From a virus (Duplodnaviria; Heunggongvirae; Uroviricota; Caudoviricetes), in the IMG/VR virus record IMGVR_UViG_2541047712_000002: a DNA stretch of 64,000 bases; one strand, written 5' to 3'. Every line of letters starts with the position of its first letter. Position 1 is the stretch's first letter. Position numbers and translations under genes: made by a program. This document shows positions 45,517 through 47,856 of the stretch, piece by piece. Under the pieces are notes generated by a model that saw nothing but the letters and a program-made list of their open reading frames with translations, was not told where the DNA came from and searched no databases.

Positions 45517-47856
45517 ATGGCAAAAGGAAAATCCGCACTGGCACTTGCTCTGAAAAAGAAAATCGGTAGCAACGACGAAATTCAGAAAGTAACTCATTGG
45601 ATTGACACAGGCTTTCCTCCGTTAAACAAAGCGATTTCCGGTCGTTACGATGGCGGTTTCCCATGTGGTCGTATCGTAGAAGTATTCGGGCCACCAAGCG
45701 CGGGGAAATGTGTTACCGCAGACACCATGCTGCTGACGGAGCGTGGAATGGTAACAGTGAAAGAGTTGTTTGAGATTGAAGGGTACAAAGCGACATGCAC
45801 TACTCGCGATGTAGAGCATAACGTTGGACTCATCAATGAAAATGGCGTGATAGAGAAGACCTCACACCTGACATGGAACAACCGTCGCAAATTCAAGCGT
45901 ATTAAGCTGGCATCAGGCGGTTACATCGAGGCTACGTTCCGTCACCCAATTCGTGTGGTTGACGACTTAGGCAATATCGTCTGGCGGTATGCTGAAAAAA
46001 TCAGTGTAGGCGACACGATTCCTTCAATGGTTGGCACACATCAATTCGGCGATCAGCACTTGGATGCCAATATCGCAAAACTGATGGGCTATTTAATTGC
46101 TGACGGATACGTGGCCTCTGAAAATTCTGTGCATTTTTCTAACACAGATCCATTCATCAAGGATGAGTACTACCGCCTCATTTCGCTGGTATCAGACAAG
46201 ATGCCAGTTGCGAGAAAACATAACGGCTCGGAAGACCATGTGCTGTTTAGCAAAGAGGTGCGTTCGCTGCTTTTTAAAGAATATGGTCTGGAGTATGAGA
46301 AAGCTGCTGGCAAGCAGGTTCCGTTGAGTGTGCGTCGCGCCAATAGCGAGGCTCAAATTGCATTCCTTCGCGGCTACTTTGAGCTGGAATGCCACGTCAA
46401 TGATGGTCGCTGCATTGAGGTTGTGAGCGCGAGTGGGCTGCTGCTACAGCAAATTCGCCTCATGCTCCTGAATCTGGGGATTACGTCAACTATCTCTGAA
46501 AAACACGTCGCGGGTTATGAAAATACATATTACCGGCTGTCATTCAGTGGCTCTAATTACGACCTTTTTCTGTCAACGATTGGTTTCGAATCTCCGGCAC
46601 GTTTATCAGTGGCAACCAAACGGGACATTGGTTTTGACCGCACTTACTCAGGCTATGTTCCGCACATCAGCGGCTTAGTGAAATCACTCTACGAGTCGCT
46701 CACCAAGACCACCCGTGAAGACTACGCTCTGGTAGACCACGTTATTGGCCGCGGCGATCGTGTCGGAATAGACAAACTGCGAGAAATCTATGTCTCCTTC
46801 ATTGGCAGAAAGAATCGTTTTAACGAGCATCTGTTTGCACAACTGGCAGCGGTAATTGGCTCTAACTTGTTCTACGACGAAGTCGTGGCTATTGAGGAAG
46901 GTGAAGCACCAACGTTCGACGTAGCGATGCCGGAAACACACTCTTTCTGGTCTAACGGGATTATCAGCCACAACACATTCCTTGCAACAGCAGCGATGAT
47001 CTCCGCTCAAAAACAAGATGGTCTGGCGGTATTCCTCGATCATGAAAACAGTTTTGACGTTGGCCTGGCTGTCGCCAATGGCCTGAACGCAGATGAGGAT
47101 GACGGTCAGTGGGTATACAAGCAGCCAGATACCTTCGAAGACTCTGTAGAGTTGATCGGCACAATACTTAAATTGGTTCGTGATGAAGAGCTTATCCCCG
47201 AATCAGCACCAATCTGTATCGTGGCTGACTCTCTTGCGTCTATGGTTCCGAACTCCAAAGCCGAGAAGTTCGAAAAGATGGCTGAAGGCACAGCCAAAGA
47301 CAAAGATCAGCTAAACATGAACGACAATACAGCACTGGCTCGTGCGACGAGTGCGAACTTCCCTACTCTGGCTTTGTGGGCACGCAAATACAACGCCTGC
47401 ATCATCTTCTTGAATCAGGTTCGCACAAAAATCGGTGTAATGTTTGGCGACCCTACTACGTCTCCAGGCGGCGATTCACCGAAGTTTTACGCTTCTGTGC
47501 GCATCCGTCTCGGTGCATCGGTGATGAAGGATGGGAAAGAGAAGATCGGCCAGGACGTAGGCGCAGAATGCATCAAAAACAAAGTTGCACCACCGTATGG
47601 CAAATGCACCTGGAAATTCTACTTCGATCCTACTCGTGGCCTCGACGTTATCGAATCGCTCGTCGAGTACATGCTGGAAGAAGGATACCTGCCAAAGAAC
47701 GCCAGCGGGCGAGTTGAAATTGGTGACAAGAAATACACCAAATCGCAGATCGTCGAGATGTATCGGGAGAAGCCACTGGCTGAAATCATTGCGGCTTTGC
47801 AGGCAATCGACGACCGAAGAGCAAAAGACAACCCCACCGAGTCAGTAGAAGAGTAA
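45517..47856 (+). CDS. recA: RecA-family recombinase interrupted by an intein
   Basis: N-extein ...GRIVEVFGPPSAGK and C-extein TFLATAAM... together form a RecA P-loop; C-extein contains FLNQVRTKIGVMFGDPTTSPGGDSPKFYASVRIRLG, near-identical to the RecA L2 region; exteins sum to ~357 aa. Confidence 0.75.
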   Translation: MAKGKSALALALKKKIGSNDEIQKVTHWIDTGFPPLNKAISGRYDGGFPCGRIVEVFGPPSAGKCVTADTMLLTERGMVTVKELFEIEGYKATCTTRDVEHNVGLINENGVIEKTSHLTWNNRRKFKRIKLASGGYIEATFRHPIRVVDDLGNIVWRYAEKISVGDTIPSMVGTHQFGDQHLDANIAKLMGYLIADGYVASENSVHFSNTDPFIKDEYYRLISLVSDKMPVARKHNGSEDHVLFSKEVRSLLFKEYGLEYEKAAGKQVPLSVRRANSEAQIAFLRGYFELECHVNDGRCIEVVSASGLLLQQIRLMLLNLGITSTISEKHVAGYENTYYRLSFSGSNYDLFLSTIGFESPARLSVATKRDIGFDRTYSGYVPHISGLVKSLYESLTKTTREDYALVDHVIGRGDRVGIDKLREIYVSFIGRKNRFNEHLFAQLAAVIGSNLFYDEVVAIEEGEAPTFDVAMPETHSFWSNGIISHNTFLATAAMISAQKQDGLAVFLDHENSFDVGLAVANGLNADEDDGQWVYKQPDTFEDSVELIGTILKLVRDEELIPESAPICIVADSLASMVPNSKAEKFEKMAEGTAKDKDQLNMNDNTALARATSANFPTLALWARKYNACIIFLNQVRTKIGVMFGDPTTSPGGDSPKFYASVRIRLGASVMKDGKEKIGQDVGAECIKNKVAPPYGKCTWKFYFDPTRGLDVIESLVEYMLEEGYLPKNASGRVEIGDKKYTKSQIVEMYREKPLAEIIAALQAIDDRRAKDNPTESVEE
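45709..46974 (+). mobile_element. intein (422 aa) with LAGLIDADG homing endonuclease domain
   Basis: in-frame insertion beginning with Cys right after P-loop GK and ending with His-Asn before Thr; LAGLIDADG-type motifs LMGYLIADGYV and FLRGYFELECHV inside. Confidence 0.65.

Follow-up and report, generated by a model that had tools for sequence, protein, structure and literature searches.

A probable class-1 intein with a nested LAGLIDADG homing endonuclease at the Walker A motif of an SSU5-like phage-plasmid recombinase

A survey of the inteins of RadA and RecA recombinases distinguished five insertion points (Topilina, Novikova, Stanger, Banavali & Belfort 2015, Nucleic Acids Res 43:6631, PMC4513877). 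Its Table 1 lists an element designated c2 (65-486) in eight Escherichia coli strains, two Enterobacter (including Enterobacter cloacae) and one Salmonella (Salmonella enterica), and its authors inferred that RadA c1 and RecA c2 arose by independent invasions of the same site. According to two reports, the exteins of the c1 intein of Pyrococcus horikoshii (Pho) RadA control its splicing, and single-stranded DNA (ssDNA) stimulates it (PMC4513877; PMC5238726). Here we describe the RecA c2 intein within the recombinase gene of a 64,000-nucleotide (nt) stretch of virus record IMGVR_UViG_2541047712_000002 (the window), the source of which is an SSU5-like E. coli phage-plasmid of the Cyrano/pLF82 type. 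We identify nt 45709-46974 of the window, with a probability of about 0.9, as a full-length class-1 intein that carries a nested LAGLIDADG homing endonuclease. The element is not new; it has been catalogued since 2015 (PMC4513877) and is common in public genomes.

The recombinase is encoded as one precursor open reading frame (ORF), the parts of which are listed below. Lengths are in amino acids (aa), intein residues are counted from its first Cys, and in the motifs quoted in the text a hyphen marks the junction.

45517..47856, plus strand: precursor ORF of the intein-containing RecA-family recombinase; 779 aa, 86.6 kDa; the coordinates include the stop codon
45517..45708, plus strand: N-extein, aa 1-64; its C-terminal end is the Walker A sequence GPPSAGK, with Lys64 as the -1 residue
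45709..46974, plus strand: intein, 1266 nt; 422 aa, 47.6 kDa, Cys1 to Asn422 (Cys65 to Asn486 of the precursor)
45934..45945, plus strand: intein block B, T76-F-R-H79 (TxxH); kept in aligned relatives as AT.(N/R)HP
46081..46113, plus strand: first LAGLIDADG motif, LMGYLIADGYV; intein aa 125-135, putative catalytic Asp132
46363..46398, plus strand: second LAGLIDADG motif, FLRGYFELECHV; intein aa 219-230, putative catalytic Glu227; the best PF14528 stretch spans aa 215-292
46909..46974, plus strand: intein blocks F and G, PTFDVAMPETHSFW...NGIISHN; D404, H411, penultimate His421 and terminal Asn422
46975..47856, plus strand: C-extein, 293 aa plus stop; begins with Thr+1, which is both the Walker A Thr and the predicted splice nucleophile

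The recombinase ATG is preceded, at a distance of 7-8 nt, by an AAGGAG ribosome-binding site. The exteins sum to 357 aa, and the insert sits between them in frame, flanked by GPPSAGK-C and ISHN-TFLATAAM. The original prediction for this DNA had described a 779-aa recA ORF interrupted after the Walker A GK by a 422-aa in-frame insertion that begins with Cys and ends in His-Asn, with two LAGLIDADG-type motifs inside it; all of these coordinates proved exact, and both motifs were found in the insert. The guanine-plus-cytosine fraction was 0.45-0.51 within the insert and 0.46-0.51 in the exteins, with no compositional anomaly, and neither supports nor contradicts a foreign origin of the insert.

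Profile searches matched the insert to intein families at both ends and over its full length. The NCBIfam models TIGR01445 (intein_Nterm) and TIGR01443 (intein_Cterm) scored 35.3 bits (cut-off 24.5) and 16.9 bits (cut-off 15.6), respectively; Pfam PF14890 (Intein_splicing) covered intein aa 9-422 at 46.1 bits (cut-off 35.8) and PF14528 (LAGLIDADG_3) reached 66.6 bits (cut-off 22.5). NCBIfam also returned partial matches of the protein to many archaeal and bacterial intein-containing proteins. The set of class-1 splicing residues is complete, comprising Cys1 (block A), T76 and H79 (block B), D404 and H411 (block F), H421-N422 (block G) and Thr+1, and the region of blocks F and G is the best-conserved stretch across the intein relatives. 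An AlphaFold2 model of the intein, built on an alignment of ten same-site relatives, had a predicted local distance difference test (pLDDT) score of 83 and a predicted template-modelling score (pTM) of 0.86. The top Foldseek match to this model was the TliVMA intein (PDB 7qss; E 2e-20, template-modelling (TM) score 0.69), followed by 2cw7 (PI-PkoII), 1dq3 (PI-PfuI) and PI-SceI, with mini-inteins, Hedgehog Hint domains and I-DmoI ranking lower. The β-rich parts of the model (residues 1-107 and 387-422), which represent the Hint fold, find matches in mini-inteins as well as in full inteins. The insert is very probably splicing-competent.

The joined exteins aligned to E. coli RecA without a gap over the P-loop (GRIVEVFGPPSAGKTFLA versus GRIVEIYGPESSGKTTLT), with K64 paired to the Walker A Lys of GPESSGKT in E. 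coli RecA, which places the intein after the Lys and before the Thr of the Walker A motif. When the unspliced 779-aa protein was searched, the Pfam RecA family matched in two separate stretches (3.3e-36), whereas the joined exteins gave one continuous match (2.2e-42). Because the 422 residues split the Walker A motif, we can soundly infer that recombinase activity depends on splicing. The extein is a member of the RecA family but not an orthologue of housekeeping RecA, scoring 153.7 bits against the housekeeping RecA equivalog TIGR02012, below its cut-off of 325.3. Evidence on its kinship to T4 UvsX points both ways: it matches phrog_97 ('UvsX-like recombinase', 1.1e-91), and its neighbours include a gp32-like protein and a homologue of an annotated UvsY; yet solved structures favour RecA, with RecA entries matching the extein at about 1e-34 as against 2e-9 for T4-type UvsX.

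The intein-free form of the gene exists in nature. In Escherichia phage CMS-2020a (CP053388.1), the gene is present minus exactly the 1266 nt of 45709-46974, with the empty site reading ...CCAAGTGCAGGGAAA-ACGTTCCTTGCA... and the junction falling exactly at K-T. Its 1074 nt differ from the window exteins at 30 positions, all of them synonymous, such that the encoded protein and the spliced product predicted for the window are 100% identical. SSU5 and Klebsiella phage vB_Kpn_1825-KPC53 are likewise intein-free with the same K-T junction. The profile scores together with an exact 1266-nt empty allele are far beyond chance. A misassembly or the insertion of a non-splicing domain was also considered but rejected, since an exact intein-free allele exists, the catalytic residues are intact and the independent assemblies number in the hundreds. 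The original prediction had further held that removing the insert restores a canonical GPPSAGKT P-loop and a RecA of about 357 aa, and had proposed an extein-to-RecA alignment, a search for intein blocks A, B, F and G, searches with intein, Hint and LAGLIDADG profiles, and a search for an intein-free homologue as ways to check the assignment; the continuous RecA match and the gap-free P-loop bear out the former, and each of the latter came out in favour of an intein, with all four blocks present, all four profiles above their cut-offs, and CMS-2020a empty at the K-T junction that the alignment defines.

We then considered how widely the two forms are distributed. Among 736 plasmids in PLSDB that carry the gene, 248 (34%) contain the intein; the carriers belong to eight named genera plus one uncultured-bacterium record, with Escherichia (123), Klebsiella (71), Enterobacter (41) and Citrobacter (6) among them. 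The gene occurs in 250 of 5,426 complete E. coli genomes and is interrupted by the intein in 114 of these 250 (about 46%); all 252 places at which it was found in these genomes are plasmid-borne, and none is chromosomal. The exact 779-aa protein is present in NCBI (EQO56451.1 and others), where its 90%-identity cluster has 1,496 members. Public annotation of this protein is inconsistent: PGAP names its copies 'LAGLIDADG family homing endonuclease', 'hint domain-containing protein', 'recombinase RecA' or 'intein-containing recombinase RecA', and other labels include 'hypothetical protein' and, for the 779-position family PHROG 9666, 'unknown function'.

Two damaged copies were encountered among these sequences. 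E. coli 101.3 plasmid p2 (CP059946.1; locus L012) carries a naturally disrupted copy of the gene, in which a 772-bp IS1 (924-1695) with IS1-type terminal repeats and an InsAB'-like ORF lies inside the endonuclease domain of the intein, at about nt 617-623 of the gene with a 7-bp overlap. Escherichia albertii p3RM15112 (CP043255.1; locus L011, 2309-4150), a reduced plasmid of 62 kb, holds the most divergent intein copy seen (93.6% DNA identity); its ORF stops 128 codons into the C-extein, the record contains no coding sequence (CDS) there, and the ratio of nonsynonymous to synonymous substitution rates (dN/dS) of the C-extein is 0.73, which marks this allele as a decaying pseudogene.

Comparison of intein-bearing alleles across genera gave a pattern expected of a mobile element. 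The intein DNA of the Klebsiella p4727 allele is 97.7% identical to that of the window, its N-extein DNA 79.7% and its C-extein DNA 81.4%; the Enterobacter pTUECL19003 allele gives 97.6%, 85.9% and 84.6% in the same order. Synonymous divergence (dS) in these two comparisons is 0.064-0.068 in the intein versus 1.0 to more than 2 in the exteins. The junction reads GCG GGG AAA-ACA TTC C in all intein-bearing alleles and GC(A/C/T) GG(G/T) AAA-AC(G/C) in empty ones. Within 75 nt on either side of the site, intein-bearing PhiR41_1 and intein-free CMS-2020a differ only at -7 and +3, and intein-bearing Klebsiella p4727 and intein-free Klebsiella phage vB_Kpn_1825-KPC53 only at -7, -4 and +3. These sequence comparisons indicate a co-conversion tract of about 10-18 bp, centred on the insertion site, and the intein has thus entered several diverged extein backgrounds together with only this length of flank. 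Because the intein DNA is near-identical, the exteins are diverged and only this short flank seems to have moved, the data point to recent cross-genus homing, and the population data point to homing that is probably ongoing. In the window, the flanks concerned are 45687-45708 and 46975-46983, where the synonymous differences between intein-bearing and intein-free alleles cluster at -7, -4 and +3.

Several observations weigh against the reading of the insert as an active, self-splicing homing element. In the literature, we found no experimental splicing or endonuclease data for the RecA c2 intein. The second LAGLIDADG motif is atypical, YFELEC, ending in E-C where D/E-G is usual, and cleavage activity is therefore not guaranteed. 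Two copies have decayed, one through IS1 in the intein and the other through a frameshifted C-extein. The dS of the intein, 0.03-0.07, makes it younger than most of the extein divergence; since that divergence is mostly older than the spread of the intein, conservation of the exteins is weak evidence for function of the intein-bearing alleles. The decayed copies, and the fact that most RefSeq/GenBank copies are named as an endonuclease or a Hint-domain protein, would suit an insertion that has become fixed, does not splice and abolishes recombinase function, leaving in effect a pseudogene or an endonuclease gene only. We regard this as extremely improbable, as every splicing residue is intact and these positions vary least among distant relatives, the frame is open across both junctions in five full-length copies of 779-780 aa from three genera, an annotated protein-coding gene underlies 59 of the 60 best plasmid matches, and the 23 changes that separate the exteins of the window from those of PhiR41_1 are all synonymous.

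A different question is whether the endonuclease is still active. The insert contains two LAGLIDADG helices with the acidic residues D132 and E227, the arrangement of a two-motif, single-chain enzyme, and a search of PDB sequences returned the endonuclease domains of the TliVMA intein, PI-PkoII and PI-PfuI, with GYLIADG of TliVMA aligning residue for residue. An intein that splices but has an inactive endonuclease, and that spreads passively by homologous recombination between co-resident phage-plasmids, would account for the atypical second motif; three same-site relatives (P0011, P0016, P0017) have degenerate endonuclease domains without the first motif, and SSU5-like phage-plasmids recombine often and possess their own recombination module. 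Against this, both acidic residues are kept, and dN/dS is 0.12-0.25 over the endonuclease region and 0.03-0.11 over the N-terminal splicing region, low values that place both regions under purifying selection. Moreover, in the independent extein backgrounds of E. coli, Klebsiella and Enterobacter alike, the transferred segment extends no more than about 10 bp from the site in either direction, and such limits near the site in several backgrounds are predicted by endonuclease-initiated homing, in which a break is repaired, but not by random recombination breakpoints. We therefore consider passive spread unlikely and the endonuclease of the RecA c2 intein probably still active.

The data show directly how the insert is built, to which families it belongs, where it is inserted, that an intein-free allele exists and that its distribution bears the mark of recent horizontal spread. 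From established intein chemistry, we infer that the RecA c2 intein also splices and cleaves DNA, in the following manner. The 86.6-kDa precursor would be made with its ATP-binding loop split and would be incapable of proper ATP binding or recombinase action. Cys1 would initiate an N-S acyl shift, Thr+1 would attack to give a branched intermediate, and cyclisation of Asn422, aided by His421, would free the 47.6-kDa intein and leave a ligated 39.0-kDa recombinase with an intact GPPSAGKT loop. In cells that hold two phage-plasmids, the free intein would then act as a site-specific endonuclease that cuts intein-less alleles at the K-T codons, and repair from the intein-bearing copy would insert the intein.

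Splicing might in addition be conditional, gated by ssDNA, DNA damage, redox state or temperature, a proposal that is compatible with the self-splicing, homing intein preferred here. The insertion point is the same as that of the Pho RadA intein, for which the reports cited above describe extein control and stimulation by ssDNA (PMC4513877; PMC5238726), and Cys1, Cys30, Cys228 and Cys235 of the intein, together with Cys50 of the N-extein, could in principle form a redox trap. However, precursor models of the Pho RadA kind were not feasible for an E. coli RecA precursor owing to steric clashes (PMC4513877), and about half of the close E. coli phage-plasmids lack the intein and have an identical mature protein; the element is therefore dispensable, and a regulatory role sits awkwardly with this. 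A conditional switch is accordingly quite unlikely in our estimation. A more specific form of it, which we hold to be very unlikely, would make the intein a post-translational gate on the recombination module of the phage-plasmid, with precursor building up in plasmid-state lysogeny and splicing upon lytic induction; if it were true, ssDNA, DNA damage or a change in redox state would switch on recombination-dependent replication.

In two SSU5-like phage-plasmids, the Escherichia phages Cyrano (pLF82) and PhiR41_1, the recombinase gene is 98.3-98.5% identical to that of the window. In the window, its neighbours make up a recombination module of the following genes.

42666..43097, plus strand: upstream neighbour; its homologue in phage Cyrano is annotated as a UvsY recombination mediator, and the window gene has no Pfam match
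43215..44243, plus strand: gp32-like single-stranded-DNA-binding protein (PF08804, 1.7e-66)
44253..45248, plus strand: 5'-3' (flap) exonuclease (PF02739 and PF01367)
45242..45514, plus strand: small conserved ORF of 90 aa directly 5' of the recombinase; hypothetical in PhiR41_1, SSU5 and the Enterobacter plasmid

Other features of the window lie further upstream. A cspA thermoregulator at 40993-41411 on the minus strand matches Rfam RF01766 over its full length (187.6 bits; cut-off 78) and overlaps a cold-shock-domain ORF at 41018-41329 on the same strand (PF00313, 4e-33). The phage-plasmid thus has a cspA-like gene with a temperature-sensing leader; the matching stretch of Cyrano has no annotated feature. 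A chaperone-usher fimbrial cargo at 26999-30735 (plus strand), consisting of a fimbrial subunit, a PapD-like chaperone and an outer-membrane usher, is flanked by the tRNA cluster and the integrase region and was not seen in the annotation of the Cyrano segment examined. The tRNA genes, at 22898-23512 (plus strand), are Asn(GTT), Tyr(GTA) and Ser(TGA), the first two of which are supported by Rfam; the Cyrano cluster is annotated as Asn, Thr and Ser, so the middle tRNA differs or is called differently.

What the present analysis adds to the catalogued element is its host gene, which is the recombinase of an SSU5-like phage-plasmid and not a chromosomal RecA, along with the presence/absence polymorphism, the plasmid-only carriage, and the signature of cross-genus homing with very short co-conversion tracts. 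Our search of the literature for inteins in SSU5-like elements found no paper linking the two, and the Cyrano/LF82 paper does not discuss the recombinase gene. The increment is modest, and the RecA c2 intein in the window opens no new question. It does offer a convenient natural system, with a tractable host and matched intein-bearing and intein-free alleles that have identical mature proteins, and these alleles could be used for measuring intein homing, any cost to fitness and any conditional splicing.

The closest described element is the RecA c2 intein of the survey itself, which is the same element, occupying identical residues 65-486; the plasmid gene of MS 145-7, a strain listed there, is 99.1% identical to the window gene. 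The two accounts differ in the host protein, which PMC4513877 treats as bacterial RecA, with the words phage and prophage absent from the paper, whereas the window gene occurs only on plasmids, belongs to the recombination module of an SSU5-like phage-plasmid and scores below the TIGR02012 cut-off. The Pho RadA intein (c1; PDB 4E2T) occupies the homologous K-T site at the end of Walker A in a recombinase of the RecA superfamily and is likewise a class-1 intein with Thr+1; its Hint fold matches the splicing domain of the model (Foldseek E 1.8e-4). It is, however, a mini-intein with no endonuclease, its sequence is only marginally similar (22% over about 125 columns), and conditional splicing has been shown for it.

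The inteins of Mycobacterium tuberculosis RecA (PI-MtuI, site a) and M. leprae RecA (site b) are also LAGLIDADG inteins with a Hint domain in RecA (Foldseek matches 2imz and 5i0a, E about 1e-3). They differ in position (residues 252 and 206, at the monomer interface), in residing in chromosomal housekeeping RecA and in sequence, which is unrelated; NF007072 matches the intein part at only 21.6 bits. The archaeal TliVMA (7QSS), PI-PkoII (2CW7) and PI-PfuI (1DQ3) and the yeast PI-SceI share the architecture of a Hint domain split by a two-motif LAGLIDADG endonuclease. TM scores of the archaeal VMA and Pol intein-endonucleases to the AlphaFold2 model are 0.59-0.69, and VMA inteins also reside in a P-loop ATPase; the host proteins and the domains of life are different, and identity is 15-21%.

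Relatives at the same site were collected with a homologue search that relied on a word index and returned 17 proteins, too few for a phylogeny. The nearest non-identical ones are metagenomic RecA proteins of 30-45% identity, all with an intein at a GK-C...HN-T/S site, and some of them are bona fide bacterial-type RecA (…GPESSGK-C…SHN-TTLTLQAIAEAQ). The nearest phage relatives, with 33-34% identity over the full length (E 9e-54 to 7e-48), are the 422-aa intein in the RecA of Bacillus phage fHSPT3 (Herelleviridae; GKPGGGK-C…HN-S, 33% identity) and the 418-aa Walker A inteins in UvsW-type helicases of Twort-like phages (GGK-C…HN-T). These belong to other phage families with Firmicutes hosts, the host protein in the Twort-like phages is a helicase, and their sequences are too divergent for the same allele. 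The same-site relatives fit the familiar picture of intein lineages that are specialised on P-loops.

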